64,000 nucleotides of DNA from an uncultured Chloroflexia bacterium (GTDB lineage Bacteria; Chloroflexota; Limnocylindria; Limnocylindrales; CSP1-4), in the NCBI GenBank assembly GCA_963781845.1, contig CAWAHN010000004.1, forward strand, positions 256,050 through 320,049. Direction: 5' to 3'. The translations under genes and the position numbers were made by a program. The notes below the pieces were generated by a model that saw only the letters and a program-made list of their open reading frames with translations, had not been told where the DNA came from and did no database searches. This document shows positions 6,263 to 54,663 of this stretch, piece by piece (within the stretch, counting starts at the first letter, position 1; every line of letters starts with the position of its first letter).

Positions 6263-6271
6263 TGCTAGACT
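6263..6271 (+). promoter_or_regulatory. Candidate extended -10 promoter element (TGcTAGACT) for the ECF sigma/anti-sigma operon
   Basis: A TGnTANNNT match lies between the divergent tRNA-Leu and the sigma gene. GGAGG at 6296-6300 precedes GTG 6313. Confidence 0.3.
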
Positions 6272-6312
6272 CGCCGCGCCTCACCCAGCCCGTCCGGAGG
6301 TGGCCCCCGATC

Positions 6313-6921
6313 GTGGAGGACCGTCGCCCGACCGCGGCCGTCGACGACCCCGTCCAGCGGCGCGATCTCATCCTGATCGAGCGTGCGCGCGATGGCGACC
6401 TCAGCGCGTTCAACGACCTCGTCGAGCTGTACCAGGATCAGCTCTTCGCGCTCGTCGCGCGGATGGTCCCGGATCGAGACCAGGCATCGGACGCGGTCCA
6501 GGAGGCGTTCTTCTCGGCGTATCGGAACCTTGCCGGGTTCCGAGGCGGCAGCGTCAAGTCGTGGCTCAACCGCATCTGCGTCAATGCCGCGATGGATGCG
6601 CAACGGGCGCGGAAACGGCGGCCGGTCCAGCCGTACCCAGAGTTCGAGGACGACAGCTGGCAGCCGCCGACGGGGGAGGAGGCGGACCCGGAGCGCATCG
6701 TCCTGACCGCCGAGCGGTCGCACGTCCTGAGCGCCGCGCTCGCCAGGATCACCGACGATCAGCGCGCTGCCATCGTCCTGTTCGACGTCCAGGGATACGA
6801 CTATGCCGAGATCGCCGAGATGACGGGCGTGTCGCTGGGGACGGTCAAGTCCCGGATCCATCGGGGGAGGCTCGCGCTGCGCGGACTGCTCGAGGACCGG
6901 ATGGAACTGTTCCGTGGTTGA
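6313..6921 (+). CDS. ECF-type RNA polymerase sigma-70 family factor
   Basis: Region 2 is ERARDGDLSAFNDLVELYQDQLFALVARMV...DAVQEAFFSAYRNLAGFRG...WLNRICVNAAMD. Region 4 is AIVLFDVQGYDYAEIAEMTGVSLGTVKSRIHRGR. The start is uncertain: in-frame alternatives are 6211, 6262 and 6313, and 6313 was chosen because of the upstream GGAGG and -10-like box. Confidence 0.85.
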   Translation: MEDRRPTAAVDDPVQRRDLILIERARDGDLSAFNDLVELYQDQLFALVARMVPDRDQASDAVQEAFFSAYRNLAGFRGGSVKSWLNRICVNAAMDAQRARKRRPVQPYPEFEDDSWQPPTGEEADPERIVLTAERSHVLSAALARITDDQRAAIVLFDVQGYDYAEIAEMTGVSLGTVKSRIHRGRLALRGLLEDRMELFRG

Positions 6922-6936
6922 GGTCGTCTGAAGGCC

Positions 6937-7716
6937 GTGCCGTACCTGCCCCACACCCGCCCCGATCACGACGAGTCGCTCATCGCCCGGCTCGCCGTCG
7001 ACGACGTCGACCCACGCGAGGCCGGCGCCGCCCAGCAGCTCGTCGCCGAGTGTCCGGCCTGCGCCGAGCTCCTGTCCGATCTCAGGGCGATCGCGGCGGC
7101 GACCGCGGCGCTTCCGGCTCCGAGCCGGACCCGCGACTTCCGGCTGACCGAGGCCGACGCGGCGCGGTTGCGCCCGGGCGGCTGGCGCGGCCTGGTCGCC
7201 CGATTCGGCACCCCGGGGTTCGCCTTCACCAAGCCGCTGGCGACCGGGCTGGCGACCCTCGGGATCGCCGGGTTGATCCTGGCCTCCCTGCCGGCGAGCC
7301 TCGGCGGGTCGGCTGCGTCCGCGCCCGAGGGAGCCTTCAGCACCGTCGGCGGGCCCGTCCAGGCGCAGGACGCCGGACCGGGTCCCGCGATGGGAGTGGC
7401 ACCGCCGATGGCGGGGCCCGAGGTCCTGTCGAGCGCCAAGGCCGCCCCGAGCCCGGTTCCGGCGAACGGGGGCGCCGCCGTGAGCGGCGCTGGGAGCGGG
7501 TCGCGAGACGGCTCCCCGAGCCCCGCCGTCGCCGGCCCGGTCGCCGCCGCACCCGGCAGCCCCGCCACCTCGACGAACGTCGATCGTGCGTCGGTGACAT
7601 CGGGACCGACCGGCTCGACCTCCGCCATCACCCCGCTGACCGCCCTGTCGGTGACCCTGCTCATCGTCGGGATCGCCCTGTTCGGACTCCGCCTGGTCGC
7701 AGCGCGCATCGTCTGA
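6937..7716 (+). CDS. Putative anti-sigma factor (CxxC zinc-finger-like N-terminus, one TM helix, low-complexity outer tail)
   Basis: It lies 16 nt downstream of the ECF sigma gene. The N-terminus contains LVAECPACAELLSDL. The TM helix is LATLGIAGLILASL, followed by an A/G/P/S-rich region and a second C-terminal hydrophobic helix. Confidence 0.6.
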   Translation: MPYLPHTRPDHDESLIARLAVDDVDPREAGAAQQLVAECPACAELLSDLRAIAAATAALPAPSRTRDFRLTEADAARLRPGGWRGLVARFGTPGFAFTKPLATGLATLGIAGLILASLPASLGGSAASAPEGAFSTVGGPVQAQDAGPGPAMGVAPPMAGPEVLSSAKAAPSPVPANGGAAVSGAGSGSRDGSPSPAVAGPVAAAPGSPATSTNVDRASVTSGPTGSTSAITPLTALSVTLLIVGIALFGLRLVAARIV

Positions 7717-7744
7717 CGGGCCGTCGGGCCCGGGTACACTCACG

Positions 7745-10700
7745 GTGTCCACTCCGACCGCGTCCCGAGGCCTGCCGATGGAACGCCTGATGCTGCTCGA
7801 CGGCAACGGGCTCATCTACCGCGGATACTTCGCGCTCCCGCCCCTGACCACCTCGAAGGGCGAGCTCGTCAACGCGGTCTTCGGCTTCTGCAGCATCGTC
7901 CTGCGTGGGTTCCAGGACATCGATCCGACCTACGTCGCGGTCGCCTTCGACCTGTCCGGGCCGACCTTCCGCCACGAGCGTTTCGCCGACTACAAGGCCA
8001 CCCGGCAGCGGATGCCCGACGACCTCCGGGACCAGTTCCCCAAGGTCCGCGAGGTCGTCAAGGCCCTTCGGATCCCCGTCTACGAGCTCGCCGGCTACGA
8101 GGCGGACGACGTCATCGGGACGCTCACCGTCCAGGCCGAGCGTGAGGGCCTGGACACGACGATCGTGACCGGCGACCTCGACATGCTCCAGCTGGTGACC
8201 GACCGGACCAGGCTGATGACCACCCGCTCGGGTGTCCAGAACACGATCATCTACGACCCGCCACGGGTCCTCGAGCGCTACGGCCTGGTCCCATCGCAGA
8301 TGATCGACTTCAAGGCGCTCAAGGGCGACTCGACCGACAACATCCCGGGCGTCGCGGGGGTGGGCGACAAGACCGCCGCCCAGCTGATCCAGACGTTCGG
8401 CAGCCTCGAGGGCCTGTTCGAGCGGATCGACGAGGTGCCGCGCGAGAAGCTCCGCTCGGCGCTGATCGAGGCCAGGGACCGTGTCCTGGAATCCCGCGAG
8501 CTGATGACGATCGTCCGCGACCTCCCCGTCGAGCTCGACCGGGACGCCGCCCGTCTCGGCGACTACGATCGCGAAGGCGTCATCCGCCTGTTCCGCGAAT
8601 ACGAGTTCCGGACGCTCATCGAGCGTCTGCCGGCGCTCACCGGGGAGCGCGCTGACGAGACCGTCGAGGCGCTCCGGACCGCCGATGCGGGCGAACCGAT
8701 CCGGGCCGCCCAGGTCGCCGGTCGGCCGACCGGCTGGGGCCCGGCGCCCGCCGGCGGGTCGCGCGTCGGGCAGGCGCCCGCGCCGGGGTCGCTGGTGGGC
8801 CAGGGGAGTGGCCTGCAGCTGTCGCTGGACTTCGCCGCGATGGATCCCGCGTCCGTCGGCAGCGGCGGTCCCGGCTGGGCACCGGTGTCGCGCGGCGCGA
8901 GCGGCCCGGTCGAGCCGGCCGCGGATCTGCCGAGCGCACTGGCTGCGGCCATCGTCGATCCGGCGGGCCGGATCGAGCTCGTCACGGGCGACGCCATCGG
9001 CGCCATCGAGCCGTGGCTGGCGACCCATCCGGCGGTCGGCGCCGCTCTCGTCAGCGACGATCCGCGGCCGCTCGCTGGCACAGCGATCGCGATGGCGGTC
9101 GCCGGACCCGATGGCCGGACCATCGCCGTCGAAGGACCCGCGGATTCGGCACGTCTGCGCGACCTCCTCGCGCGGCTCGGGGTCGGCCTCGTCGCCCACG
9201 AGGCGAAGCCGTTGCTCGTCGAGCAGTTCGCCGCCGGTGGCGACGGCCCGGGCCTCCGGGTGGCGTTCGACACCCAGATCGCGGCCTACATCCTGAACGC
9301 CAGTCTCCGCAGCCAGACGATCGCCGACGTCGTGGCCGAGCAGCTCGACCTCATCCTGCCGCCGGCCGTCGAGCTGCCGCCGTTCGCGAGGGCCGGCCTC
9401 GAGGCCCTGTCCGCGATCACCGCCCGCGATCCACTGGCGGCCGCCCTCGAGCGCGAGAAGCTCGACCGTCTGTTCACCGAGATCGAGCTGCCGCTCATCC
9501 GCGTCCTGGCCCGGATGGAGGCCGTCGGGGTCGCCCTCGACCGCGACGCCCTGAGCGCACTCGACATCGAGTTCCGGGCCGAGATCGAGCGGCTCGAGGC
9601 CGAGATCTACGCCAGCGTCGGACACGAGTTCAACCTCGGGAGCCCGAAGCAGCTCGAGCAGGTCCTGTTCACCGAGCTCGACCTGCCGAAGGGCAAGCGG
9701 ACGAAGACCGGGTACTCGACCGACGCCTCCGTCCTCGAAGAGCTGCGCTCCGCCCACCCGATGGTCGAGGGGCTGCTCGAGTGGCGGACCTACACCAAGC
9801 TCCGTTCGACGTACGTCGAGGCCCTGCCGATGCTGATCGCGTCGGACGGGCGGCTGCACACCACGTTCCACCAGGCCGTCGCCGCCACCGGGCGTCTGTC
9901 GTCGTCGGATCCGAACCTCCAGAACATCCCGATCCGGACGCCGCTGGGTCGCCGGATCCGCCGGGCGTTCGTGGCCGGGGCCCCCGACGTGACGCTGGTC
10001 GCCGCCGACTACTCGCAGATCGAGCTGCGGATCCTCGCCCATGTCTCGGGCGACGAGCACCTCCGCGACGCCTTCGCCCGCGGCGCCGACATCCATCGGG
10101 AGACGGCCGCTCGGGTGCTCCACAAGGCGCCTGCTGAGGTCACGTCGGACGAGCGCTCGATGGCCAAGATGGTCAACTTCGGGATCGCCTACGGGATGAG
10201 CGACTTCGGCCTGTCGACGCGCGCGGGGATCCCGCGCAAGGAGGCGCAGGAGTTCATCAACACCTACTTCGCGACCTACTCCGGGATCAGCTACTACATG
10301 CTCCACATCAAGGAGCAGGCCCGCCAGCAGGGCTTCGTCACGACGCTCCTGGGCCGCAAGCGACAGATCCCCGAGCTCGAGGCCCGCAACCCGAGCCTCC
10401 GGGCGGCCGGGGAGCGGATGGCGATCAACATGCCCATCCAGGGCACGGCGGCCGACATCATCAAGATCGCGATGATCCGCCTCGCCGAGCGGCTCGAAGA
10501 GGGCGGCTTCCGGGCGCGCCCGCTGCTCCAGGTCCACGACGAGCTCCTCCTCGAGGTGCCGCGCGACGAGGTCGAGCGGCTGGTGCCCGTCCTCCGCTCG
10601 ACGATGGAGTCGGCGCTCGCGCTCGACGTGCCGCTGACCGTCGACGTCAAGGCCGGCGACGACTGGGAATCGATGATCCCGTTGAGCCGCGCCGACGCCG

Positions 10701-28033: not shown

Positions 28034-29704
28034 TCACGTGGGGCGGGTCGGCTCGACCTCGAGCCCGAGCTCGTCCGGGTCGAACCCCTCGAGCAGGAAC
28101 CGCGACGGGGCGGCCGGGTCGTACACGAGCGTCAGGGTGCGTCGCGCCCGGGTCCACGCGACGTAGGCGAGGCGCCGCTCCTCCTCGAGCGCCCGCATCG
28201 GGTCGTCGGCCTCGTCGAGCGTCCGCTGGCTCGGGAACCGACCGTCGTCCATGTCGACGATCGCCACGTCGTCGAACTCGAGTCCCTTGGTCGAGTGGAC
28301 GGTCGCGAGGATGAGCCGTGCATCGTCCTGGCGAAGGCGGGCCAGCTCGGCCTGTCGCTCGCGTACGGCGGCGACGAACCGCCCCGCGTCCGGGTACGGC
28401 GCCGCCCAGGCGAGGACGGCCGCCAGCAGGTCGTCGAACGAGCCTTCGTCCTCCCCGAGACCCGCCTCCGCGCTCCGGGTGCCGGCCGCCCGGATCCGGG
28501 CCAGCCGAACGAGCAACGGGTCGGGGGCTTCGTCGCCGGCCAGCCGGGCCAGGACGGGCTCGAGCCGCGCATCCTCCAGCGGCAGGATGAGCCGATCGGC
28601 CCGGAACGGACGCCCGAGCTCGAGCGCGACCGCCGCGGCCGGCAGGAGCTCGCGGTTGGTCCTGGCGAGGATCGCCCGGGTGGCGTCGCCGGTCGTGCCG
28701 GACTCGTCCGGCCAGGTCGACAGGACGTGCCGCGCCCGGTCGTCGTCGTCGGCGGCATCGGGCGCGAGGATCAGCCGCCCCGGAGCGTCCGTTCGCGCCG
28801 CGACCTCCTTGTCGAACCGCTCCACGTTGTGCTCGACCAAACGGACGGCACGCTCGACCACCGGGGCAGGGCAGCGGAAGTTCGTGACCAGGTCGTGACG
28901 TCGCAGCCCGGGCAGTCGATCGGCCAGCGCCAGCACCCGCCGGACGTCGGCGAGCCGCCAGCCGTAGATCGACTGGTCGTCGTCGCCGACGAGGAAGATC
29001 CGGTTCGCCGGCGCGGCGATCAGGAGGGCCAGTTCGAGCTGCGACCGATCCACGTCCTGGACCTCGTCGACGAGCAGCTCGACACACGCGGAGCGCCAGC
29101 CGGCGAGGGTCGCGGGGTCGTCCTCCAGCAGCGACAGGGAACGGGCCACGAGGTCGTCGAAGTCGAGGCCGCCGGTCGCGCGAACGGCCGCCTCGTAGGC
29201 GACGAATGCCCGCGCGCGCGGACCGGCGTCGGGGTCGACCGCGATCGATGCCGGGTCGACTCGGCTCTCGAGCTTGAGCGTCGAGAAGACCGTGTCGAGC
29301 CGACGGCGTTCGGCGGGATCGGCGTCGGGCAGGATGGCCCGGATCGTCAGGTCACGATCGACCAGCGGTTCGACGGGCTGGCCGGCCGCGCGCAGGACCT
29401 CCCTCCCGAACGCGTGGAAGGTGCGGACGCGGACGGTCCCGACCGGGACGTCCAGGGGCGCCAGGGCGACGCCGACGCGCTCGACGAGCTCGTCGGCGGC
29501 TCGCTTGTTGAACGCGATCGCCGCGATCCGGTCCGCCGGAGTCCCGGTCGCCACGAGCCAGGCGATCCGCGCGACGAGGGTCGTCGTCTTGCCGCTGCCG
29601 GCAGGCGCCAGGCACAGGACCGGGCCGGACTGGGCGGTCGCTGCCGTCCGCTGGTCCGGCGTCAGCCGATCGAGGCGGGCCAGGACGTCGGGATGGAGCT
29701 CCAT
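28034..29704 (-). CDS. UvrD/Rep/PcrA-family ATP-dependent DNA helicase (short form, 556 aa)
   Basis: Walker A is LCLAPAGSGKTTTLVARI. Other blocks are FHAFGREVL, LLVDEVQDV, FLVGDDDQSIYGWR, ATVHSTKGLEFD and LAYVAWTRARRTL. Confidence 0.88.
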   Translation of the reverse strand: MELHPDVLARLDRLTPDQRTAATAQSGPVLCLAPAGSGKTTTLVARIAWLVATGTPADRIAAIAFNKRAADELVERVGVALAPLDVPVGTVRVRTFHAFGREVLRAAGQPVEPLVDRDLTIRAILPDADPAERRRLDTVFSTLKLESRVDPASIAVDPDAGPRARAFVAYEAAVRATGGLDFDDLVARSLSLLEDDPATLAGWRSACVELLVDEVQDVDRSQLELALLIAAPANRIFLVGDDDQSIYGWRLADVRRVLALADRLPGLRRHDLVTNFRCPAPVVERAVRLVEHNVERFDKEVAARTDAPGRLILAPDAADDDDRARHVLSTWPDESGTTGDATRAILARTNRELLPAAAVALELGRPFRADRLILPLEDARLEPVLARLAGDEAPDPLLVRLARIRAAGTRSAEAGLGEDEGSFDDLLAAVLAWAAPYPDAGRFVAAVRERQAELARLRQDDARLILATVHSTKGLEFDDVAIVDMDDGRFPSQRTLDEADDPMRALEEERRLAYVAWTRARRTLTLVYDPAAPSRFLLEGFDPDELGLEVEPTRPT

Positions 29705-29825
29705 GGCCGCGATGGTCGCGCGCAGCTCTCACCGGCGGCTGCTCGAAGATCGAACCATCCGGCGCATCTCACCCCCATCACGGGTGTAGCGTCCGTGATG
29801 GGCGGCTGCCGAAGGGAGCGGGCGG

Positions 29826-30377
29826 TTGGACCGAAGCCTGGTCGAAGAGGCGATGCACGGCGATGAGGCGGCGTTCGCCGGCCTGATGACCGTGGTCGGC
29901 GACCGTCTGCTCGCGACGGCGTTCCGGATCCTGCGCGACCTCGACCTCGCCGAGGATGCGGTCCAGGTCGCCCTCATCGGCGCCTGGCGGGATCTGCCCG
30001 GTTTGCGCGAGCCGGACCGGTTCGAGCCATGGCTCATGCGTCTCCTCGTCCGCGCGTGCTATGCGGAGGCGGAGCGCCATCGACGCTGGACCGGCCGGAT
30101 CCAGGTGATCCCGGTCGACGGCCCGGCGACGCCCGACACCACCGGTGCGGTGGCCGATCGCGACCAGCTCGACCGGGGCTTCCGGCGACTCCCGGTGGAC
30201 CAGCGGGCGGTGTTCATCCTCCACCACTACCTCGGCTGGTCCCAGCCCGAGATCGCCGAGAACCTCGAGATCCCGCTCGGGACGGTGAAGTCCCGGCTCC
30301 ACTACGCCACGCAGACGCTCCGGGCGGCCCTCGAGGCCGATGCCCGGACCGCCGCCAGCACGGGACGGCCAGCATGA
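29826..30377 (+). CDS. ECF-type sigma-70 family factor
   Basis: The start is TTG at 29826, or alternatively ATG at 29853. Region 2 is DEAAFAGLM...AEDAVQVALIGAWRDLPGLREPDRFEPWLMRLLVRACY. Region 4 is RAVFILHHYLGWSQPEIAENLEIPLGTVKSRLHYA. Confidence 0.88.
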   Translation: MDRSLVEEAMHGDEAAFAGLMTVVGDRLLATAFRILRDLDLAEDAVQVALIGAWRDLPGLREPDRFEPWLMRLLVRACYAEAERHRRWTGRIQVIPVDGPATPDTTGAVADRDQLDRGFRRLPVDQRAVFILHHYLGWSQPEIAENLEIPLGTVKSRLHYATQTLRAALEADARTAASTGRPA

Positions 30378-31339
30378 GCACCGGAGAGGACTTCGATCGG
30401 ATCGTCCGCGACTGGCTGGAGGTCGGCCCCACCCAGCTGTCCGAACGCGCGACCGAGGCCGCCCGGAACGGCATCCACCGGACGCAGCAGCGCCACGGGC
30501 TCCGCCTGGTCCTGCGCCGGCCGGCCGGTCGGGCGGTCCGCATCGTCGCCATCACCGGAATCGCGGCGGCCATCGTCATCGCGACCGCGGTCGGCCTTCG
30601 GCTCTCCCAGGGTCGTGACGCGATCGGGGGGCCACAACCCACATCGAGCCCATCGGCCGCGGCTTCCGACCGCGTCCAGCTGTCGTTCCGTGCCCTGCCG
30701 TCCGGATCGGCGATCCCGGACGCGGTCGCCGTCGCCACGATCCGGGACATCGTCCAGCAACGACTGAACGCGGCGGGGTTCGCCGATCCCGTCGTAACGG
30801 CGGACGGTACCGACCGGATCGTCGTGGACCTGCCCCGCGGGACCGACGTCGCCCAGCTCGAGCCGCTCGTCCTGCGTCGCGGCCAGGTCGCGTTCGTGCC
30901 GCTGCCTGCGGATCGCTACGGCACGTCCGTGACCGGGGAACCGACCGGCGTCGTCGACGGGCAGCCGCTGCCCAGCGACCCGAGTCTGACGCCGCTGTTC
31001 ACCGGCGAGCATCTGACTGCGGCGAACCCCGGGACCGACCAGACGACGGGCGAACCGGTCGTGGCATTCACGCTCGATGCCGCGGCCACCAAGCTGTTCT
31101 CGGACTACACCCGGGACCACGTCGGCGACTTCTTCGCCATCGTCCTCGACGACACGGTCGTCTCGGTGCCGAGCATCCGCGAGCAGATCACGGACGGCTC
31201 CGGGCACATCACGCTCGGCACCGGGACCGATGCCGTCGCCTCGATGAACGAGCTGGTCTCGATCCTCCGTTACGGGGCCTTGCCGTTCCCGCTCCAGCTC
31301 GAGAACGCGACCGGACCGTCCGGCTCGCCCGCGCCGTGA
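30374..31339 (+). CDS. Single-pass membrane protein with SecD-periplasmic-head-like extracytoplasmic domain, in anti-sigma position
   Basis: Its ATG overlaps the sigma stop (ATGA at 30374-30377). A ~50-aa cytoplasmic N-terminus is followed by the TM helix AVRIVAITGIAAAIVIATAVGL. The next ~250 aa are collinear with the SecD encoded at 33289: ATIRDIVQQRLNAAGF, FVPLPADRYGTS, LTPLFTGEHLTAANPGTDQTTGEPVVAFTLD, FFAIVLDD..VS.PSIREQI and SMNELVSILRYGALPFP. There is no C-terminal 6-TM SecD core. Confidence 0.8.
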   Translation: MSTGEDFDRIVRDWLEVGPTQLSERATEAARNGIHRTQQRHGLRLVLRRPAGRAVRIVAITGIAAAIVIATAVGLRLSQGRDAIGGPQPTSSPSAAASDRVQLSFRALPSGSAIPDAVAVATIRDIVQQRLNAAGFADPVVTADGTDRIVVDLPRGTDVAQLEPLVLRRGQVAFVPLPADRYGTSVTGEPTGVVDGQPLPSDPSLTPLFTGEHLTAANPGTDQTTGEPVVAFTLDAAATKLFSDYTRDHVGDFFAIVLDDTVVSVPSIREQITDGSGHITLGTGTDAVASMNELVSILRYGALPFPLQLENATGPSGSPAP

Positions 31340-31383
31340 CCCGGTCGCCTGCCGGCACGGGGGACCGGCGGTAGCATCAGCGG

Positions 31384-33240
31384 GTGACCCCCGAGCTCGC
31401 CGCGACCCTCAAGAAGCTGCCCGACCGGCCCGGCGTCTACCTGATGAAGGACGCCCGGGGCGTGGTCGTCTACGTCGGCAAGGCGCAGAGCCTGCGCAGC
31501 CGGGTCCGGAGCTACTGGCAGAAGCAGGCGGTCGGAGGCGAGATCCATCGGATCCGCAGCGTGATCGACCGGGTCGTCGACCTCGACTACACGATGACGG
31601 ACTCGGTCTCCGAGGCGCTCCTCCTCGAGGCGAACCTGATCAAGCGGTACGCGCCCCGGTTCAACATCCGGCTCAAGGACGACAAGAGCTACCCGTACAT
31701 CAAGATCACCCTGGCCGACGACTTCCCGAGGATCGAGCGGACCCGCAAGCTGCCCAACGACGGCAGCCGGTATTTCGGGCCGTATGCGTCGGCGACGAGC
31801 GTCGACGAGTCGATGAACCTGATCCGGCGCTTGTTCCCGTTCCGGACCTGCACGATCGACATCCAGGACGGCAAGCGGGCGCTCCAGCGACCCTGTCTCC
31901 TCTATCACATCAAGCGCTGCCAGGGCCCGTGTATCGAGGCGATCTCGAAGGAGGCGTACCGCGCCGACATCGAGCAGGTCGAGCTGTTCCTCGACGGGCG
32001 CCAGGAGACGCTGGTCAAGGCCCTCGAGAGCGAGATGGGGTCCGCGGCGGAGCGGACCGAGTACGAGCGCGCCGCCGTCCTGCGCGACAAGATCCGGGCG
32101 ATCGAGCGGACGATGGAGAGCCAGAAGATGGCCGCGTTCGCACGGACGGAGCTCGATCTCATCGGGATCGCCCGGCAGGACAATCAGGCGGCCGTCCAGC
32201 TGTTCGTGATCCGTGACGGGAAGATGATCGGCCGCGACGTGTTCCTGCTCGATGCCGCGCGCGAGGCTTCCGACGACGAGGTCCTGGCCGGCTTCCTCGA
32301 GCAGTACTACAGCCGGGCGACCTCGATCCCCGTCCAGGTCCTCGTACCCGGCCTGCCCGGCCCGGAGGACGCGGATGTCCTGACGGCCTTCCTCGCCGAT
32401 CGGCGGGCGGGTCCGGTCCACCTGCGCGTCCCGCAGCGAGGGGAGAAGCGAGCCCTGATGGCGCTCGCCGTGCGGAACGCGACCGAGGCGCTCGCGCGCG
32501 AGCAGGCCCGTTGGCTCGCCGACCAGGGCAAGACCCTCGGCGCGCTGCGCGAGCTCGCCGACGCCCTCGGGTTGGCCGATCCGCCGCTCCGGATCGAGTG
32601 CTACGACATCAGCAACTTCCAGGGCGACCAGTCCGTGGCGAGCATGGTCGTGTTCGAGGACGGCAAGCCCAGGACTGGCGACTACCGACGGTTCCGGATC
32701 AAGGACGTCCAGGGACCGAACGACTTCGCCAGCCACCAGGAGGTCCTCCGCCGTCGCTTCCGGCGGGCCAAGGCCGGCGACGAGGGCAGCGAGGAGGAGC
32801 TCCGCTGGCGACTGCCCGACCTGGTCATCGTCGACGGCGGCAAGGGCCAAGTCAGCGCGGCCGCCGAGGTCCTGGCCGAGATGGGGCTCGACGACCTGCC
32901 GCTCGCCGGGCTCGCCAAGGAGCGTGAGGAGCTCTTCCTTCCGGGCCGGTCGGATCCGGTCCTCCTGCCGGCCACCTCGCAGGCGCTCTACCTGGTCCAG
33001 CGGCTGCGCGACGAAGCCCACCGGTTCGCGATCACCTACCACCGCGACCTTCGGGCGAAGGCGTCGGTGCGGTCCGCCTTCGACGATCTCCCCGGTGTCG
33101 GTCCGAAGCGGCGCCGGGCCCTGCTCCGCGTGTTCGGCTCGGCCAAGCGCGTGCGCGAAGCGCCGGTCGAACAGATCGCCGCGGTGCCGGGGATCGGGCC
33201 CGCCCTCGCCGCCCGGATCAAGGCGACGATGGAGGCCTGA
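31384..33240 (+). CDS. uvrC: Excinuclease ABC subunit C
   Basis: The GIY-YIG block is PGVYLMKDARGVVVYVGKAQSLRSRVRSY. The UVR motif is EYERAAVLRDKIRAI. It also has the endonuclease V-like block and C-terminal (HhH)2, LPGVGPKRRRALL...IAAVPGIGPALA. TAGCAT lies 6 nt upstream of the GTG. Confidence 0.95.
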   Translation: MTPELAATLKKLPDRPGVYLMKDARGVVVYVGKAQSLRSRVRSYWQKQAVGGEIHRIRSVIDRVVDLDYTMTDSVSEALLLEANLIKRYAPRFNIRLKDDKSYPYIKITLADDFPRIERTRKLPNDGSRYFGPYASATSVDESMNLIRRLFPFRTCTIDIQDGKRALQRPCLLYHIKRCQGPCIEAISKEAYRADIEQVELFLDGRQETLVKALESEMGSAAERTEYERAAVLRDKIRAIERTMESQKMAAFARTELDLIGIARQDNQAAVQLFVIRDGKMIGRDVFLLDAAREASDDEVLAGFLEQYYSRATSIPVQVLVPGLPGPEDADVLTAFLADRRAGPVHLRVPQRGEKRALMALAVRNATEALAREQARWLADQGKTLGALRELADALGLADPPLRIECYDISNFQGDQSVASMVVFEDGKPRTGDYRRFRIKDVQGPNDFASHQEVLRRRFRRAKAGDEGSEEELRWRLPDLVIVDGGKGQVSAAAEVLAEMGLDDLPLAGLAKEREELFLPGRSDPVLLPATSQALYLVQRLRDEAHRFAITYHRDLRAKASVRSAFDDLPGVGPKRRRALLRVFGSAKRVREAPVEQIAAVPGIGPALAARIKATMEA

Positions 33241-33271
33241 GGGAGTCGCTTCCGCCCCCTCCGCCGTCGAC

Positions 33272-33280
33272 TGGTATAGT
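33272..33280 (+). promoter_or_regulatory. Candidate extended -10 (TGgTATAGT) 8 nt upstream of the secD ATG (possible leaderless secDF transcript)
   Basis: This is a near-consensus TGnTATAaT in the 48-nt uvrC-secD spacer. There is no Shine-Dalgarno sequence before ATG 33289. Confidence 0.4.
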
Positions 33281-33288
33281 CCGCCGCG

Positions 33289-34680
33289 ATGCGTCGCTTC
33301 GTCCCCATCCTCATCGTGGTCATCGGCCTGCTCGCGCTCGCCATCGACTTCTGGCCCGGCCTCAAGCTGCCGGCCCTCGGCGACCCCTCGGCGGGGTCGC
33401 GCCTCGTCGAGACGAAGCTCGGGCTCGACCTCCAGGGCGGCCTCCGGGTCGAGTACCAGGCGCTCCCGGTCGGCGACAAGTCGCCCGACGCCGGAGCGAT
33501 GGCGACGATCCGCGACATCATCGAGCGGCGAGTGAACTCGACCGGCGTGTCCGAGCCGATCGTCGTCGTCCAGGGTACGGACCGCGTCGTCGTCGAGCTG
33601 CCGGGGGCCACCGACCGCGAGGCGATCGAGCGGCTCGTCGGCCAGACCGGGCAGCTGACGTTCGTGCCGCTGCCGGCCGACCGCTACGGCACGTCGACGA
33701 CCGGAGGTCCGAACGGCGTGCTCGACGGCCAGCCGCTGCCGGACGATCCGAACCTGACGCCGCTGTTCACCGGCGAGCATCTGACTGCGGCGAACCCCGG
33801 GAACGACCAGACGACGGGCGAACCGGTCGTGGCGTTCACCCTCGACGACACGGCGGCCAAGCTGTTCGCCGAGTACACCAAGGCGCACGTCGGCGAGTTC
33901 TTCGCGATCGTCCTCGACGGGAAGGTCATCTCGGCCCCGAGCATCCGCGAGCAGATCCCCAACGGCTCCGGTCAGATCACGATGGGCTCGGGCAAGGACG
34001 CGGTCGCGTCGATGAACGACCTGGTCGCCGTCCTCCGCTACGGCTCGCTGCCGTTCCCGATCCATGCCGTCCAGGACTCGCAGATCAGCGCCACGCTCGG
34101 GGCGGAGTTCCTCCATTCGAGCCTCGTCGCCGGAGCCATCGGGATCGGGCTGGTCTTCCTGTTCATGCTCGTCTACTACCGGCTGCCGGGGATCGTGGCC
34201 GACCTGGCGCTCCTGTACTACGCGATCGTGGTGCTGGCGATCTTCCGGCTCATCCCGGTGACGCTGACCCTGGCCGGGATCGCCGGCTTCGTCCTGTCGG
34301 TGGGCATGGCGGTCGACGCCAACATCCTCATCTTCGAGCGGACCAAGGAAGAGCTCCGGTTGGGCAAGACCCTCAACTCCGCGGTTGAGGCGGGCTTCGC
34401 CCGGGCCTGGAATTCGATCCTTGACTCGAACGTCTCGAGCCTGATCACCGCCGGGATCCTGTACGCCTTCGGTTCGCCGACGATCAAGGGCTTCGCGCTC
34501 GTCCTGATCATCGGCGTGCTCACCTCGATGTTCACCGCGGTCACCGTGACCCGGACGATCCTGCGGGTCGTCGTCCGTCAGGACTTCGCGCGCAAGGCCA
34601 GGTTGTGGGGGGTCAGCGACGACGATTTCCTGGCGCGGACCCCGGGCCGCGGTCCGCGTCCGGTGCGCGCCCGTGTTTGA
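33289..34680 (+). CDS. secD: Protein translocase subunit SecD
   Basis: It has an N-terminal TM helix, a periplasmic head (LGLDLQGGLRVEY...), then the 5-6 TM core with SVGMAVDANILIFER and LDSNVSSLITAGILY. Confidence 0.93.
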   Translation: MRRFVPILIVVIGLLALAIDFWPGLKLPALGDPSAGSRLVETKLGLDLQGGLRVEYQALPVGDKSPDAGAMATIRDIIERRVNSTGVSEPIVVVQGTDRVVVELPGATDREAIERLVGQTGQLTFVPLPADRYGTSTTGGPNGVLDGQPLPDDPNLTPLFTGEHLTAANPGNDQTTGEPVVAFTLDDTAAKLFAEYTKAHVGEFFAIVLDGKVISAPSIREQIPNGSGQITMGSGKDAVASMNDLVAVLRYGSLPFPIHAVQDSQISATLGAEFLHSSLVAGAIGIGLVFLFMLVYYRLPGIVADLALLYYAIVVLAIFRLIPVTLTLAGIAGFVLSVGMAVDANILIFERTKEELRLGKTLNSAVEAGFARAWNSILDSNVSSLITAGILYAFGSPTIKGFALVLIIGVLTSMFTAVTVTRTILRVVVRQDFARKARLWGVSDDDFLARTPGRGPRPVRARV

Positions 34681-35891
34681 CGTCATCGGCAAACGTCGCT
34701 GGTTCTTCCTGATCTCGGCGATCGCGACGATCCCCGGCTTCATCTTCATCCTTCTCGGTCCGATCACCAACGGTGCGGCCGGGCTGCAGTTCTCGATCGA
34801 CTTCACGGGCGGGACGAACTGGGAGATCCGGTTCGAGGACCCGACCGTCACCGGCAGCCAGATCAAGTCGGCGCTCGCGGACCAGGGCGTGACCGACGCG
34901 TCGGTCATCGCGACCAGCGGCGGCTTCTACGAGATCCGTTCGCGGCAGGTCGCCCTGCCGCCGCCGGCCGCGACCCCGTCGCCGTCGATCGCGCCGAGCG
35001 GCGCCGCGTCACCCGGCGCCTCGGCCTCTGCCGGAGCGTCGACATCGCCGGGGGCGAGCGCCTCGCCGGGCGCTGGCACATCCGCGTCGCCCGGGGCGTC
35101 CGCGTCGGCCGCGTCCGTCGGTTTCGCCCAGCCCGGGATCGTCCGCGTCGGCCGCTCCGTCGGCGTCCGCCGCGCCGTCCGCGTCGCCGGGCATCGGCGT
35201 CGGCAGCACCGAGCCGCAACTGCCGACGACCGGTGCGTTCGGCAAGATCGCGACCGGGCTGCAGAAGGAGCTCGGGCCGATCGCGGCCCAGCGCGCGCTG
35301 TCGACCGTCGGGCCCGTCATCAGCCAGGAGCTGACCCAGCAGGCCGCGCTGCTCATCGTCCTCGGCTCGATCGGGATCCTGATCTGGATGACCATCCGGT
35401 TCCACGACGTCAGGTTCGGTGCGACCGCGCTGGTGGCGCTCGTCCACGACGTGCTCGTGCTCATCGGCACGTTCGCCATCCTCGGGACGTTCTTCCGCGT
35501 CCAGATCGACGCCCTGTTCGTGACCGCGGTCCTGACGGTCATCGGCTTCAGCGTCCACGACACGATCGTCGTCTTCGACCGCGTCCGGGAGAACCGGGCC
35601 CGCCACATCGGCGAGCCGTTCGACCGGATCGTCAACCACTCGATCCTGCAGACGTTCGGGCGCTCGATCAATACCAGCCTGACCGTCATCATCACCCTTA
35701 CGGCGCTGCTCCTGTTCGGCGGCGCCGCGACGAGCTACTTCGTCCTCGCCCTGCTGATCGGCATCGTGTCCGGGACGTACTCCTCGATCTTCAACGCCTC
35801 GCCGCTGCTGGTCGTCTGGCACAACTGGGATGACCGCCGGCGCGGGCGGGTGGCGACCACCGGACGACCAGCCCGCCGCTCCGCGTCCTGA
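34673..35891 (+). CDS. secF: Protein translocase subunit SecF, reading frame broken near 35110-35130 inside a S/A/P/G-rich insertion
   Basis: The N-terminal part is in the frame of ORF 34673 (MFDVIGKRRWFFLISAIATIPGF...GLQFSIDFTGGTNWEIRF). The C-terminal TM core is in the frame of ORF 35388 and is open upstream to about 35100 (...TGAFGKIATGLQKELGPIAAQRALSTVGPVISQELTQQAALLIVLGSIGILIWMTIRFHDVRFG...FSVHDTIVVFDRVREN). The span is 1219 nt, which is 3n+1. The GTG start overlaps secD by 8 nt. Confidence 0.85.
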
Positions 35892-35942: not shown

Positions 35943-37712
35943 GTGATCGAGCCCCGCTTCCGCTGGAACCTTCCGAAGCGCGCCCGACCGACCGACGAGC
36001 TGATCGCGGCCGCCCTCGCAGCGGGGATCTCGGAGCGCATCGCGCTCCTCCTCGAGTCGCGCGGCGTGCGCGGCACGTCGGAGCTCCAGGCCTTCCTCGC
36101 GCCGAGCGGCCAGGGACTCCACGACCCGAGCCTCCTGCCCGACGCCGGACGGCTCGTGGCGCGACTGGAGCGGGCACGATCCGCCGGCGATCGGGTGCTC
36201 GTGTTCGGCGACTTCGACGCCGACGGCCTGACCGGCCTGGCGATCATGGTCCGGGCGCTACGGGCCTACGGCCTGGACGTCGAACCGTACGTCCCGAGCC
36301 GGCTGGACGAGGGTCACGGACTCAGCGTGCGAGCCGTGGAGACCGCCGAGTCGACCGGACGGTCGCTGATCGTGACGGTGGATACGGGTTCGACGAGCGT
36401 CGACGAGATCGCCGAGGCGGGTCGGCGCGGCATCGACGTCATCGTCACCGACCATCACCGGCTGCCGCCCGTCCTGCCCGCGACCGTGGCCCTGGTCAAT
36501 CCCCACCGCGACGACTCGGTCTACCCCGATCCGCGCCTGGCGGGCAGTGGTGTCGCCTTCAAGGTCGCCCAGCTGATCCTGACCGACCTGCCTGCCGGCT
36601 CGACGATGCTCGACGACATGGCCGCCCTGGCGACGATCGGCACGGTGGCTGACGTCGCCCCGATCGTCGGGGAGAACCGGGCGATCGCGAAGATCGGGCT
36701 CGACCGGCTCCGCAGCGCGCCGCCGGCCGGGATCGCCGCGCTCCTCGTGGGCGCGGGAGCCGGGTCCGGCGCCATGGACCTCGAGACCGTCGCGTTCGTC
36801 ATCGCGCCGCGGATCAACGCCGCCGGACGGATGGGCGATGCGCTCGACGCCGCCCGGCTGCTGCTGACCGACGATCCCGCGGAGGCGACCGACCTCGCGG
36901 CTCGGCTCCACCTGGCGAACATCGCCCGCAGGGACCTCACGAAGACGGCCATGGCGGAGGCCCAGGCGGTCCTCGCGGCCGAGCCGGGCGATCCCGCGGC
37001 CACCGTCGTGCGTGGAGCGTGGCCGGTCGGGGTGATCGGCCTCGTCGCCGGGCGGCTCGCGGAGGAACGCGGCCGACCCGCGGTCGTCGGGACGGACATC
37101 GACGGCCTGATCAGGGCGTCCTGCCGGAGTGCCGGCGGCGTGGACCTGGGTGCCGTCCTCGCCCAGTGCGCAGACCTGTTCATCCGTCACGGCGGTCACC
37201 CGGGCGCCGCCGGGTTCGAGCTCCCGGCCGAGCGCTGGGATGTCTTCCGCGAGCGCTTCCTGGCCATCGTCACGAATGTCTCGCCCCCGTCGTCCGATCG
37301 ACGCCCCGAGTTGAAGGTGGATCTCGTCGTGCCCGGCTCGGAGGTGGACTACCCGTTCATCCGCGAGCTGCATCGGCTCGATCCGACCGGACCGGGCAAT
37401 CCCGATCCGCTCGTCGCCGTCGAGGGCCTCACCGTGACCCGTGTCCGCGCCGCCACCGGCGGCCACTCCCAGCTGACCCTGCGCAAGCGACTCGACGTGG
37501 TCGACGGGATCGCCTTCGGGCGTTCGGATCTCGCCGAGATCGTGCGCGAGGGCGACCGGCTCGACGTCGTCGCGCGGGTCGTCACGCGCCGGTTCGGCGG
37601 CTACGAATCGATCCAGCTCGAGATCCGGGATGTCGCTCCGGCCGGCCATGTCGCCGAGCTCGCGCCCGACGAGGATGGCCGTGAGCCGCTCCTGACCGGT
37701 GTCGCGCGATGA
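35943..37712 (+). CDS. recJ: Single-stranded-DNA-specific exonuclease RecJ
   Basis: DHH motifs are VLVFGDFDADGLTGLAIM, VTVDTGS and IVTDHH. The DHHA1 block is GGHPGAAGF. There is a C-terminal OB-like domain. Confidence 0.93.
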   Translation: MIEPRFRWNLPKRARPTDELIAAALAAGISERIALLLESRGVRGTSELQAFLAPSGQGLHDPSLLPDAGRLVARLERARSAGDRVLVFGDFDADGLTGLAIMVRALRAYGLDVEPYVPSRLDEGHGLSVRAVETAESTGRSLIVTVDTGSTSVDEIAEAGRRGIDVIVTDHHRLPPVLPATVALVNPHRDDSVYPDPRLAGSGVAFKVAQLILTDLPAGSTMLDDMAALATIGTVADVAPIVGENRAIAKIGLDRLRSAPPAGIAALLVGAGAGSGAMDLETVAFVIAPRINAAGRMGDALDAARLLLTDDPAEATDLAARLHLANIARRDLTKTAMAEAQAVLAAEPGDPAATVVRGAWPVGVIGLVAGRLAEERGRPAVVGTDIDGLIRASCRSAGGVDLGAVLAQCADLFIRHGGHPGAAGFELPAERWDVFRERFLAIVTNVSPPSSDRRPELKVDLVVPGSEVDYPFIRELHRLDPTGPGNPDPLVAVEGLTVTRVRAATGGHSQLTLRKRLDVVDGIAFGRSDLAEIVREGDRLDVVARVVTRRFGGYESIQLEIRDVAPAGHVAELAPDEDGREPLLTGVAR

Positions 37713-49273: not shown

Positions 49274-49360
49274 GCCGAGGTGGCGGAATCGGTAGACGCG
49301 CTAGCTTCAGGAGCTAGTGTCCGCAAGGGCGTATGGGTTCAAATCCCTTCCTCGGTACCA
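49274..49360 (+). tRNA. tRNA-Leu (anticodon CAG), type II, CCA encoded
   Basis: The cloverleaf has acceptor GCCGAGG/CCTCGGT, anticodon stem-loop CTAGC-TTCAGGA-GCTAG, a long variable arm, and the GGTTCAAATCC T-arm. Confidence 0.9.
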
Positions 49361-49390
49361 CCCTCGACCGAGCCTCAGACAGCGTTCGAT

Positions 49391-49475
49391 GCCCAGGTGG
49401 CGGAATTGGTATACGCGTACGTTTGAGGGGCGTATGAGGCAACTCATCCGGGTTCAAGTCCCGGCCTGGGCACCA
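49391..49475 (+). tRNA. tRNA-Leu (anticodon GAG), type II, CCA encoded
   Basis: The acceptor is GCCCAGG/CCTGGGC and the anticodon stem-loop is TACGT-TTGAGGG-GCGTA. It has a long variable arm and the GGTTCAAGTCC T-arm. Confidence 0.9.
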
Positions 49476-49492
49476 TCCCCGCACTGATCCCG

Positions 49493-49519
49493 ACGGCGGT
49501 CCGACCTCCGGACCGCCGT
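49493..49519 (+). terminator. Hairpin (11-bp stem ACGGCGGTCCG / CGGACCGCCGT, 5-nt loop) directly after the tRNA-Leu pair
   Basis: The perfect inverted repeat was read from the sequence. It is followed by a T-poor tail (gttccaatt), so intrinsic-terminator function is only plausible. Confidence 0.45.
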
Positions 49520-49575
49520 TCCAATTCCGGGTACGGGCCGGTCCTGGCGGTCGACCGCGGTGACCGCCATCGGCA

Positions 49576-49650
49576 CCTCCCCTCGCCCAGTGCCGCGCCC
49601 GCCCCGATCCAGATGCGCCTCCCCTCGCCCAGTGCCGCGCCCGCCCCGAT
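49576..49650. repeat. 33-nt direct repeat cctcccctcgcccagtgccgcgcccgccccgat x2 (period 42 nt)
   Basis: Exact copies lie at 49576-49608 and 49618-49650, in the tRNA-Leu/tRNA-Val spacer. Confidence 0.9.
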
Positions 49651-49906
49651 AGAACGGCCATTGCTACCGGACCGTCCACGCCCGTCCGCTCCGGGCCATC
49701 ACGTGCCCTTGAGCGCGCCCTCATTCACGGCCGTTGTATCTCGGGTCGCAAGTGGTCCAACGTGAACCGATGCCGCCTGCCAGAGTCACACTCGGACGGT
49801 TCCTAGCAATGGTGGTTCTATCCGGCCGGCGGCCGGCGGCCGGCGGGCGGCAGCGGCGAGCGGCGACGGCACCCGCCGCGATCGCGGACGTATCCTGCCC
49901 CTGCCC

Positions 49907-49983
49907 GGGCGGTTAGCTCAGTCGGTCAGAGCGCCTCGCTTACACCGAGGATGTCGGGGGTTCGAGTCCCTCACCGCCCACCA
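49907..49983 (+). tRNA. tRNA-Val (anticodon TAC), CCA encoded
   Basis: The sequence begins GGGCGGTTAGCTCAGTCGGTCAGAGC. The anticodon stem-loop is CCTCG-CTTACAC-CGAGG. It has the GGTTCGAGTCC T-arm and acceptor ACCGCCC-A-CCA. Confidence 0.92.
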
Positions 49984-53701: not shown

Positions 53702-53777
53702 GCCGAGATAGCTCAGTTGGTAGAGCACGCGACTGAAAATCGCGGTGTCGCCAGTTCGAATCTGGCTCTCGGCACCA
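53702..53777 (+). tRNA. tRNA-Phe (anticodon GAA), CCA encoded
   Basis: The sequence begins GCCGAGATAGCTCAGTTGGTAGAGC. The anticodon stem-loop is CGCGA-CTGAAAA-TCGCG and the acceptor 3' strand is TCTCGGC-A-CCA. Confidence 0.92.
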
Positions 53778-53793
53778 CATCGGTGGTGCACGG

Positions 53794-53869
53794 GCGGGAG
53801 TAGCTCAGTTGGCAGAGCGCAACCTTGCCAAGGTTGAGGTCGCGGGTTCGAACCCCGTCTCCCGCTCCA
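53794..53869 (+). tRNA. tRNA-Gly (anticodon GCC), CCA encoded
   Basis: The sequence begins GCGGGAGTAGCTCAGTTGGCAGAGC. The anticodon stem-loop is CAACC-TTGCCAA-GGTTG and the discriminator is U. Confidence 0.92.
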
Positions 53870-53924
53870 AGATCTCGTCCGACGCACGGTCGGGCCGGCC
53901 GGCCTTCGCCGACGACTCGCCCGA

Positions 53925-53995
53925 TGCCCCTTCGTCCAGTGGTAGGACAGCGGACTTTGAATCCGCGAACCGAGGTTCGAATCCTCGAGGGGCAA
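53925..53995 (+). tRNA. tRNA-Gln (anticodon TTG), CCA not encoded
   Basis: The acceptor TGCCCCT/AGGGGCA gives the U1-A72 pair typical of bacterial tRNA-Gln. The anticodon stem-loop is GCGGA-CTTTGAA-TCCGC, with the GGTTCGAATCC T-arm. Confidence 0.88.
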
Positions 53996-54050
53996 CGACC
54001 ACGTAGACTGGCCGCACGACCGCCGTACCCCTTGCGGCGGACCGTCCCGG

Positions 54051-54126
54051 GGCGACGTACCCAAGTGGTTAAGGGGGAGGTCTGCAAAACCTCTATTCAG
54101 CGGTTCGAATCCGCTCGTCGCCTCCA
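54051..54126 (+). tRNA. tRNA-Cys (anticodon GCA), CCA encoded
   Basis: The acceptor is GGCGACG/CGTCGCC and the discriminator is U. The anticodon stem-loop is GAGGT-CTGCAAA-ACCTC, with the GGTTCGAATCC T-arm. Confidence 0.88.
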
Positions 54127-54222
54127 TTCACCCCGTTTCTTTCCGGACCTACGGACCATGGCCCATCCGCGCCCGCGGCGCGACACCAGCCAGGTCATCA
54201 TCCCCAATCGAAGGTTCGTCCG

Positions 54223-54426
54223 ATGTTGTTCAGAGCACATGTCTTCCTGTCGAGCCTCGCGTTCCAGCTCAGGGCGTTTCGCATCAATTCCGGGCTCGCC
54301 CGCGGTCAGGGCCTCGCCGAATACGCACTCATCCTCGCGCTCATCGCCATCGTCGCCATCATCGCCCTGCTCTTCCTCGGTGGTCAGGTCAGCAAGATCC
54401 TGAGTACCGTCGGCAAGTCCGTCTGA
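54223..54426 (+). CDS. flp: Flp/Fap family type IVb (Tad) pilin precursor
   Basis: RGQGLAEYALILALIAIVAIIALLFLGG matches the Flp G/xxxxEY processing motif plus the hydrophobic helix. A GAAGG Shine-Dalgarno-like element lies 9 nt upstream of the ATG. Confidence 0.8.
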   Translation: MLFRAHVFLSSLAFQLRAFRINSGLARGQGLAEYALILALIAIVAIIALLFLGGQVSKILSTVGKSV

Positions 54427-54574
54427 GACGACCGCTCCCTGATCCGTCTAGGGCTTCGCTCGACCGGATCCCGGCCCAAGGGTCCGGTGTCGTCTCGTGC
54501 GTCTGCACTAGCGTTTCGGCCTACCCCGATCGCGGCCATTAGGTCGGTCTGAGCAAGGCGCTACCCTTGCGTCG

Positions 54575-54663
54575 GCCGAAGTGGCGGAACCGGCAGACGC
54601 GGCGGACTTAAACTCCGCTGACTCGCAAGGGTCGTGTGGGTTCGAACCCCACCTTCGGCACCA
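54575..54663 (+). tRNA. tRNA-Leu (anticodon TAA), type II, CCA encoded
   Basis: The acceptor is GCCGAAG/CTTCGGC. The anticodon stem-loop is GCGGA-CTTAAAC-TCCGC. It has a long variable arm and the GGTTCGAACCC T-arm. Confidence 0.9.

Follow-up and report, generated by a model that had tools for sequence, protein, structure and literature searches.

A candidate anti-sigma partner of an ECF sigma factor in uncultured Limnocylindria carries a stand-alone SecD P1 domain

What is the role of a copy of the outward-facing domain of SecD in a protein whose gene begins inside the gene of a sigma factor? The question is raised by a locus in a stretch of 64,000 nucleotides (nt) from an uncultured Chloroflexia bacterium of the Limnocylindrales (contig CAWAHN010000004.1 of assembly GCA_963781845.1, positions 256,050 to 320,049 of the forward strand), the whole of which is referred to below as the window. 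In our opinion, the two genes probably encode an extracytoplasmic function (ECF) sigma factor and the anti-sigma factor cognate to it, a single-pass membrane protein termed here the partner, in which the stand-alone SecD P1 domain would serve as a sensor. The elements on which this opinion is based are as follows, with lengths given in amino acid residues (aa).

29812–29818, forward strand: Shine-Dalgarno-like AAGGGAG, 7 nt 5' of the sigma TTG (direct reading)
29826–30377, forward strand: gene of the ECF sigma factor, 183 aa, TTG start
30374–30377, forward strand: ATGA in which the sigma stop and the partner start are shared (direct reading; translational coupling)
30374–31339, forward strand: gene of the partner, 321 aa, ATG start

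The upstream product was assigned to the ECF (group 4) factors because sigma-2 and sigma-4 domains (Pfam Sigma70_r2, aa 25–87, 44 bits, and Sigma70_r4_2, aa 113–161, 55 bits) are contained within 183 aa and the NCBIfam sigma70-ECF model TIGR02937 is passed with a score of 66.9 at a cutoff of 42.9. The top NCBIfam subfamily was TIGR02983 (SigE-fam_strep), for which 101 bits lie below the cutoff of 141.6. This sigma family is greatly expanded and gave 7431 matches at E ≤ 1e-10, with Limnocylindrales and Dormibacteraeota among the source names. The four-nucleotide overlap with the partner gene, reported in the earlier note on this DNA, was confirmed in the sequence. The last residue of the sigma factor is Ala in 119 of the 120 closest homologues, which is what an overlap of GCA|TGA with the downstream ATG demands. 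Long sigma homologues gave no natural fusion of a sigma factor with a partner; P0129 and P0177 carry N-terminal or out-of-frame extensions only. The TTG at 29826 is favoured as the start because of full-length homologues and the AAGGGAG element; at the equivalent position of locus L001 (related loci and proteins bear L and P numbers) AAAGGAG is found. The protein-database gene caller put the start at an internal ATG, 29853 (174 aa, P0094).

By its predicted topology, the partner belongs to the type II membrane proteins; it consists of a cytoplasmic module (N-module), a transmembrane (TM) helix, a linker and an outer P1 domain.

30374–30508, forward strand: cytoplasmic N-module, aa 1–45, putative sigma-binding domain (AlphaFold2 secondary structure)
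30533–30607, forward strand: single TM helix, aa 54–78 (AlphaFold2 helix; N-in/C-out by the positive-inside rule)
30608–30670, forward strand: Pro/Ser/Ala-rich flexible linker, aa 79–99 (low predicted local distance difference test score, pLDDT)
30671–31312, forward strand: complete SecD-type P1, base and head, aa 100–313, outward-facing (alignment, Pfam, PDB, AlphaFold2/Foldseek)
31313–31339, forward strand: Pro/Ser-rich tail, aa 314–321, with Pro as the last residue, and the stop codon

The relation of the outer part to SecD is close. Residues 101–308 of the partner align without gaps with aa 52–259 of the genuine SecD encoded downstream in the window, with 138 of 208 positions identical (66%), 83% positives and an E value of 1e-99, and the invariant or nearly invariant residues of SecD and its paralogues (R130, P154, F174, G211, D259, P266, G275, G301, L303 and P304) are kept. 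The earlier note described this part as collinear with the SecD head; all the motif strings quoted there are present in the alignment, and its extent had to be widened to base and head, because the copied SecD stretch begins just past the GG motif, ends shortly before TM2 and, thus, covers the entire P1. The profile and structure comparisons proposed there gave positive results. The Pfam models of the base (SecD_1st) and head (SecDF_P1_head) are passed with 35.2 and 91.7 bits, respectively, at a cutoff of 27 for both, and PDB sequence matches lead to the P1 of Thermus thermophilus and Deinococcus radiodurans SecDF (3aqo, phmmer 5.6e-18). The AlphaFold2 model of the partner has a mean pLDDT of 83.5, with values above 90 in aa 100–313, and is superposed by Foldseek on the crystal structures 3aqo, 5xap and 5yhf with E 1e-17, probability 1.00 and target-normalised TM-scores of 0.73–0.78. 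The SecD transmembrane core is missing, as had been claimed: the partner, which ends 13 aa after P1, has no match to SecD_SecF_C (PF02355), and its score against the secD equivalog TIGR01129 is 123 at a cutoff of 244 (244.4). The Sec_GG motif (PF07549) is not matched in the partner either, the alignment with SecD beginning just after LGLDLQGG.

On the other side of the membrane, the N-module comprises about 40–45 hydrophilic residues with helices at aa 4–17 and 23–34, followed by an Arg-rich stretch (pLDDT about 65–73). The hydrophobic stretch of the TM helix is VRIVAITGIAAAIVIATAVGLRL, and six Arg precede it in aa 40–55, so that an Arg-rich N-side and a P1 domain located C-terminal of the helix agree with a single-pass, N-in protein bearing an extracytoplasmic domain. 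In the linker, pLDDT falls below 50 at aa 82–96, and both its length and sequence differ between orthologues. Cys is absent from the first 50 aa, and with it any HxxxCxxC zinc motif; together with the modelled TM helix, this bears out the earlier description of an N-terminus of about 50 aa without a zinc finger and with one TM helix behind it. A class I anti-sigma domain (four-helix, ~80–90 aa) was not found in the partner, which has two helices in ~45 aa and no Cys. The sole match of the N-module in Pfam and NCBIfam, CU044_5270, was discarded as non-significant (E 0.076), as were the chance matches of a PDB profile search (E ≥ 0.14); a profile search of a word-indexed database gave 13 short fragments only, without names.

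Is the linkage with a sigma gene peculiar to the window? Gene order around the pair is uvrA, a divergent UvrD-type helicase gene, sigma, partner, uvrC, secD, secF and recJ, and it is identical in L001. The pair is found with the same synteny and the same 4-nt overlap in L001 and L002, and in L003 the synteny is the same and a sigma gene, split by an assembly frameshift, is present. In other neighbourhoods, namely L004 (38% identity, unrelated neighbours), L005–L007 (P0058) and L016 (P0055), an ECF sigma gene overlaps the start of the gene for the P1 protein. An overlap of the 4-nt ATGA type was recorded in L001, L002, L004, L005–L007, L016, L029, L030, L052 and L083, and one of 14 nt in L058 and L080.

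A scan of genome contigs with a single protein had yielded few loci, its patterns being too specific. A scan of metagenome contigs relied on two P1 motifs and nine type-1 sequences and made no reference to sigma, and the best 80 loci were kept, genuine secD being defined by the GG motif and at least three downstream TM segments. None of the 70 genuine secD loci in this sample has an upstream sigma gene (0/70), whereas eight of the nine informative loci among ten with a non-SecD P1 protein are sigma-coupled (8/9). A complete overlapping sigma open reading frame (ORF) occurs in six of the ten, and the C-terminal end of a sigma factor lies at the contig edge in two more (L017, L089); L081 is cut inside the P1 gene, and L018 encodes a lipoprotein-type P1 protein without sigma. 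Wherever P1 proteins have a cytoplasmic N-module, the stop and start overlap with an ECF sigma gene was seen at every informative locus, and N-modules of at least four different types are represented among them. The recurrence of ECF sigma genes beside P1-only proteins in relatives, suggested for checking in the earlier note, was thus observed, and sigma linkage is, on the comparison of these loci, a property of the architecture with N-module and P1, not of the window locus.

The N-module and the outer domain are combined in more than one way. The window N-module, with the consensus DFDR...WL..GP..L..RV........QR, also heads proteins P0072–P0074, whose outer domains are unrelated and whose genes are again overlapped with a sigma gene of the same family (P0072 in L009). 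Other sigma-coupled P1 proteins begin with N-modules of the types MSDDLERRL...LPPAP (L016, L083, L089), DEEILAGVRRHM (L005–L007), MDEREFEERL (L058, L080) and MTTDNELDRMIRSWIV (L029), and a zinc-ribbon type of N-module precedes P1 as well, as seen in protein sequences. In comparison with the window, one pair of L009 (L009a) has a sigma factor 63% identical, an N-module 52% identical (E 2e-13) and an unrelated outer domain, while in L016 and L005 the sigma factors are 39% and 33% identical, respectively, the N-modules are unrelated and P1 is 38% identical in both (E 1e-37 and 1e-33). Comparison of these loci has shown that the N-module varies together with the clade of the sigma factor, with P1 as an apparently interchangeable outer module. 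As the N-module follows sigma and the outer domain is swapped, the pattern is that expected if the N-module contacts sigma; membrane anti-sigma factors are classically built in this way.

Locus L009 contains at 714–8573, within 9 kb, four paralogues of the window sigma factor, which are 54–63% identical to it, and at least two of them overlap a downstream membrane protein with the same N-module and different outer domains. In this cluster, the signalling family has undergone an expansion specific to the lineage.

It may be suggested from its tracking of the sigma clade and from the constraint on it, which is the strongest in the protein, that the N-module binds and holds sigma. Class II short anti-sigma domains (CnrY/NepR type) have a very short two-helix sigma-binding region before the membrane anchor. 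The N-module is like them in size and secondary structure only, no PDB match at E < 0.1 having been obtained. If the partner were instead a positive regulator, that is, a co-activator or membrane recruiter needed for sigma activity, the lack of homology between the N-module and known anti-sigma domains would be easily understood. Some partners of ECF factors, the FecR-type regulators, are indeed required for sigma activity. Nothing in the data specifically indicates activation, and overlapping genes for a sigma factor and a single-pass membrane protein are overwhelmingly anti-sigma pairs (PMC7826278), which makes this explanation very improbable.

To assess the size and composition of the family, 1.84 billion cluster representatives were searched exhaustively with HMMER, which gave 5768 matches at E ≤ 1e-3. 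The best 150 representatives and six earlier matches were sorted into the following classes of architecture.

SecD-like: 38
Cytoplasmic module, TM helix and P1, in some cases extended at the C-terminus: about 50
N-terminal signal or anchor and P1: 20
Lipobox and P1: 16
Unclear architecture: 15
Fragments: 12

Among 51 proteins with an N-module, TM helix and P1, SecDF_P1_head was passed in all (51/51) and SecD_1st in 32; a DsbA-like thioredoxin domain was present in seven, LysM in three and an N-terminal zinc ribbon in two, and none contains a known anti-sigma Pfam domain. The organisms, where named by the source, are Candidatus Limnocylindrales or "uncultured Chloroflexia", and the product names are "SecD", "hypothetical protein", "protein-disulfide isomerase", "LysM repeat protein" and "SecDF, P1 head subdomain". 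A terminal Pro, as in the window protein, is found in 31 of 55 proteins with an N-module, TM helix and P1, compared with 1 of 28 SecD proteins and none of 120 sigma factors; it also follows a Pro/Ser/Thr/Ala-rich tail in 11 of the 37 P1 proteins that have a signal or lipoprotein anchor. This residue could provide protection against C-terminal proteolysis or be a recognition tag.

The anchored P1 proteins call for another explanation to be considered, according to which the partner acts outside the cytoplasm as a holdase or foldase of exported proteins, a kind of "SecD-lite", co-expressed with sigma or belonging to its targets and having no inhibitory function. It is favoured by the P1 proteins with lipoprotein or signal anchors and without sigma (in the same slot in L008, in L018 and in about 36 of the top representatives) and by the DsbA and LysM fusions, which point to an effector role in the envelope. 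It leaves unexplained a cytoplasmic module that is the most constrained part of the protein and is present exactly when sigma is upstream, as well as the tracking of the sigma clade by this module and its occurrence on unrelated sigma-coupled outer domains. We consider it improbable, but not to the same degree as positive regulation. In L008, the slot between the UvrD-type helicase gene and uvrC is taken at 5001–5795 by a gene for a P1 protein with a lipoprotein signal (P0009, 264 aa).

The selective constraint was estimated from the ratio of nonsynonymous to synonymous substitution rates (dN/dS). Orthologues of the partner in independent assemblies are 85%, 81%, 60%, 50% and 49% identical to it, and distant members 38%. 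In comparison with L001, dN/dS is 0.34 for the whole partner, 0.14 for the N-module, which is its most constrained region, and 0.22 for P1 outside the gene-conversion tract described below; in comparison with L002 and L003, the values for the partner are 0.4–0.5. The sigma gene (0.11) and secD (0.05) evolve more slowly than the partner gene in the comparison with L001. By these ratios, the partner gene is under purifying selection. One might think of a functionless gene, left by a partial duplication of secD and now decaying, or created by chimeric assembly, since secD lies 2.4 kb away and shares an 86-nt near-identical stretch with the partner gene, and since frameshifts occur in related assemblies (in sigma of L003 and in secF of the window and L001). 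Intact ORFs of 38–85% identity in assemblies made independently from different samples, dN/dS below 0.5 throughout and thousands of family members speak against such an origin, the probability of which is close to nil; the pseudogene or artefact reading was rejected on the basis of dN/dS and the independent assemblies.

The partner gene is situated about 2–2.4 kb upstream of secD, with which it has exchanged sequence.

30986–31071, forward strand: gene-conversion tract from secD, aa 205–233, 86 nt, compared with secD 33754–33839
31384–33240, forward strand: uvrC, between the partner gene and secD
33289–34680, forward strand: genuine secD, 463 aa (Pfam SecD_1st, SecDF_P1_head and SecD_SecF_C)

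Only two of the 86 positions of the tract are mismatched, whereas the DNA identity for P1 as a whole is 75.6%, with 65% in third codon positions, and a run of such length was obtained in none of 5000 codon-position-preserving permutations. Within the tract, the window paralogue is of the SecD type, including a one-codon insertion, and groups with SecD proteins, while the L001 orthologue (85% identical) and other paralogues have the paralogue-type sequence (...PAVQFELD...); the trees of the tract and of the whole P1 domain disagree. Protein P0003, from a JGI contig of 1731 bp, is a mosaic, being paralogue-type to about aa 169 and again at the C-terminus. Its aa 172–297 (about 125 codons) are SecD-like at 27 of 27 informative sites, and the ORF is intact; an assembly chimera is less likely than a long conversion tract because two switches would be needed. 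The P1 domains of the partner and SecD therefore still exchange sequence, which argues that their head surfaces are functionally compatible.

Since L008 has a lipoprotein-type P1 protein without sigma in the slot between the helicase gene and uvrC, the comparison suggests that a local duplication of the 5' part of secD gave rise to this slot, the anchoring and signalling modules being exchanged later. The nearness to secD is best explained as a reflection of this duplication, and it permits ongoing gene conversion; it is not needed for function, because diverged family members are located elsewhere.

The exchange with secD also bears on a variant in which the sigma/anti-sigma pair is the same, with P1 binding no free unfolded proteins, docking instead on the translocon (for example, through its base on SecF P4, or at SecYEG in competition with SecD) and reporting SecDF stoichiometry or translocon occupancy. 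The strands of the P1 base pair with P4 in the SecDF structures (3AQP/5XAN). The copy in the partner contains this base (SecD_1st, 35 bits), and its high identity to the resident SecD, together with gene conversion, would keep an interface compatible with the resident SecF. The diverged members at 38% identity (L004, L005, L016) remain sigma-coupled despite a large sequence distance from their own SecD, and SecD_1st is passed by only 32 of the 51 proteins. Docking of this kind seems unlikely, and it is the least unlikely of the explanations set against that of a P1 sensor.

Upstream of the pair, a candidate promoter was recognised by its conservation across loci.

29750–29779, forward strand: candidate ECF-type autoregulated promoter, TCGAAC-N18-CCCATC (cross-locus conservation)

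The element TCGAAC (29750–29755), an 18-nt spacer and CCCATC (29774–29779) lie 47 nt 5' of the sigma start. The block TCGAAC...CCCATC is kept 5' of the orthologous sigma genes of L001, L002 and L003, and related motifs, (T/C)GAAC...CCATA or CGTC, are found 5' of paralogous sigma genes in L004, L009, L029, L052, L058 and L080. A strict search of the 64-kb window gave one match, that 5' of sigma itself, with 0.13 expected. The conserved GAAC-type elements are compatible with an autoregulated ECF promoter. A scan of 29500–33400 found no sigma-70 promoter and no intrinsic terminator; no terminator being predicted between the pair and uvrC-secDF, read-through into these genes may occur.

How could such a pair operate? 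According to the preferred reading, an ECF sigma factor with a P1-bearing anti-sigma, the N-module would sequester sigma at the membrane, and P1 on the outer face would interact with unfolded polypeptides that have just been translocated, or with the translocon, without the help of a proton-driven TM core. Occupancy of P1 may then change how stable the regulator is or which conformation it adopts, for example, through site-1 and site-2 proteolysis in the linker and TM helix, and sigma, when released, would transcribe from its own GAAC...CCATC-type promoter and from those of a further regulon. Binding of translocating or unfolded preproteins by P1 is suggested by homology and by the DsbA and LysM fusions in relatives, which are consistent with a role where exported proteins fold. 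That the signal is specifically secretion stress, as the earlier note supposed, can be proposed only tentatively by analogy with SecDF. Somewhat more doubtful is the full form of the idea, in which P1 anti-sigmas are dedicated secretion sensors beside the Sec translocon that capture emerging unfolded preproteins or compete with SecD for SecF/SecYEG and thereby release sigma in direct response to Sec flux or export jamming.

Several observations weigh against the preferred reading. Pfam, NCBIfam and PDB gave no match of the N-module to a known anti-sigma domain, and homology between N-module types 1 and 2 could not be demonstrated (hhalign probability 17%). In the 64-kb window, the promoter motif revealed no regulon members, loose matches being at chance level. 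Protein P0009 of L008 has neither a sigma gene nor a cytoplasmic module, and the existence of lipoprotein-type P1 proteins without sigma (L008, L018) means that P1 also has a sigma-independent function. In SecDF, the movement of P1 relies on the TM core, which is absent from the partner, and its base pairs with SecF P4. Finally, no protease genes are consistently linked to the pairs, the only candidates being faint Peptidase_M50 matches near L005–L007.

In these three loci, two adjoining genes at 1371–4389 with faint to weak matches to Peptidase_M50, one of which carries TPR repeats too, are located directly 5' of the pair of sigma and P1-DsbA genes. Peptidase_M50 being the site-2 protease family, their products might supply this system with its intramembrane protease.

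In comparison with known systems, the partner resembles SecDF P1 (3AQO/3AQP/5YHF; 5XAN/5XAP) in its fold of base and head, in the motifs FAIVLD...P..I and G.LPFP and in the outward-facing position of P1 after a TM helix. It differs from SecDF in the absence of a 6-TM proton-conducting core, a GG motif and an SecF partner gene of its own and in its anchoring by a single signal-anchor helix behind a cytoplasmic module. With the pairs RseA-sigmaE and RsiW-sigmaW it shares the gene overlap with an upstream ECF sigma, the N-in/C-out orientation, the small cytoplasmic domain and a modular outer domain. Unlike these anti-sigmas, the partner has no class I domain or zinc motif, a cytoplasmic part of ~40 aa and a SecD P1 as a sensor. 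The state of export or insertion is also sensed, and gene expression adjusted, by VemP, which controls secD2/F2 (PMC7793623, PMC11470409), by SecM and MifM, by the CssRS system of Bacillus subtilis, through which secretion stress induces HtrA and HtrB (PMC6527527), and by sigmaM-YhdL, in which sigmaM responds to the overproduction of membrane proteins (PMC6827917). These circuits are made up of arrest peptides, a two-component system or unrelated anti-sigma domains, and none of them uses a translocon domain as a receptor, as the proposed pair would.

Literature searches with the terms SecD, P1 head, anti-sigma and ECF, including the paper on ECF re-classification, revealed no description of a SecD-P1 anti-sigma, and database names show none; the earlier note, too, knew of no described anti-sigma class built on a SecD head. 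Systems made up of an ECF sigma factor and a single-pass membrane protein are familiar; the free-standing translocon-domain sensor and the size of its family appear undescribed.

Some other features of the window were noted. Its secF (34673–35891) is split across two frames, the N-part (aa 1–95 of intact homologues) beginning at 34673 and the C-terminal part (aa about 194–420) ending at 35891, with the break within an Ala/Ser/Pro/Gly-rich low-complexity stretch at roughly 34960–35190. In L001 secF is also split, elsewhere, and in L002 and L008 it is intact (426–433 aa). The split in the window is probably an indel error of long-read assembly, with a genuine frameshift as the alternative. In this lineage, the outward-facing domain of SecF contains an Ala/Ser/Pro/Gly-repeat insert of ~100 residues, unusual for SecF (window ~34960–35190; gene copies at 10318–11619 in L002 and 9115–10395 in L008).

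Another sigma/anti-sigma pair of the window occupies 6211–6921 and 6937–7716 (forward strand, 15-nt gap). The product of the first gene belongs to the sigma-70 family and is 36% identical to the sigma factor studied here, while that of the second (259 aa), has the Cys motif ...ECPACAELL... close to its N-terminus and a TM segment at the C-terminal end, and thus resembles the usual zinc-type anti-sigma factors. A tRNA-Phe of 86 nt called by ARAGORN at 36161–36246 (reverse strand), within the recJ ORF, is likely a false positive, because the Rfam tRNA model is silent there at the gathering threshold; genuine tRNA clusters are located at 49274–49983 and 53702–54663, and a tRNA-Leu at 6068–6154.

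Pairs of ECF sigma and anti-sigma factors are a major mode of bacterial signalling, and the signal of most groups has not been established. A definition of this family would correct public annotations in which P1 proteins are now misnamed "SecD" or hypothetical. If P1 anti-sigmas were indeed dedicated secretion sensors, they would be a transcriptional counterpart of the arrest-peptide monitors SecM, VemP and MifM, and a translocon domain would for the first time be seen to have been taken over as a receptor in signalling. The family indicates that SecD P1 can exist and be selected alone, on a one-helix or lipid anchor and in fusions with DsbA or LysM, which bears on the mechanistic role of P1 without proton-driven movement. 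The structure of P1 and the ligand class of its parent, unfolded polypeptides leaving SecYEG, give a concrete hypothesis for these regulators in uncultivated soil Chloroflexota (Limnocylindria).

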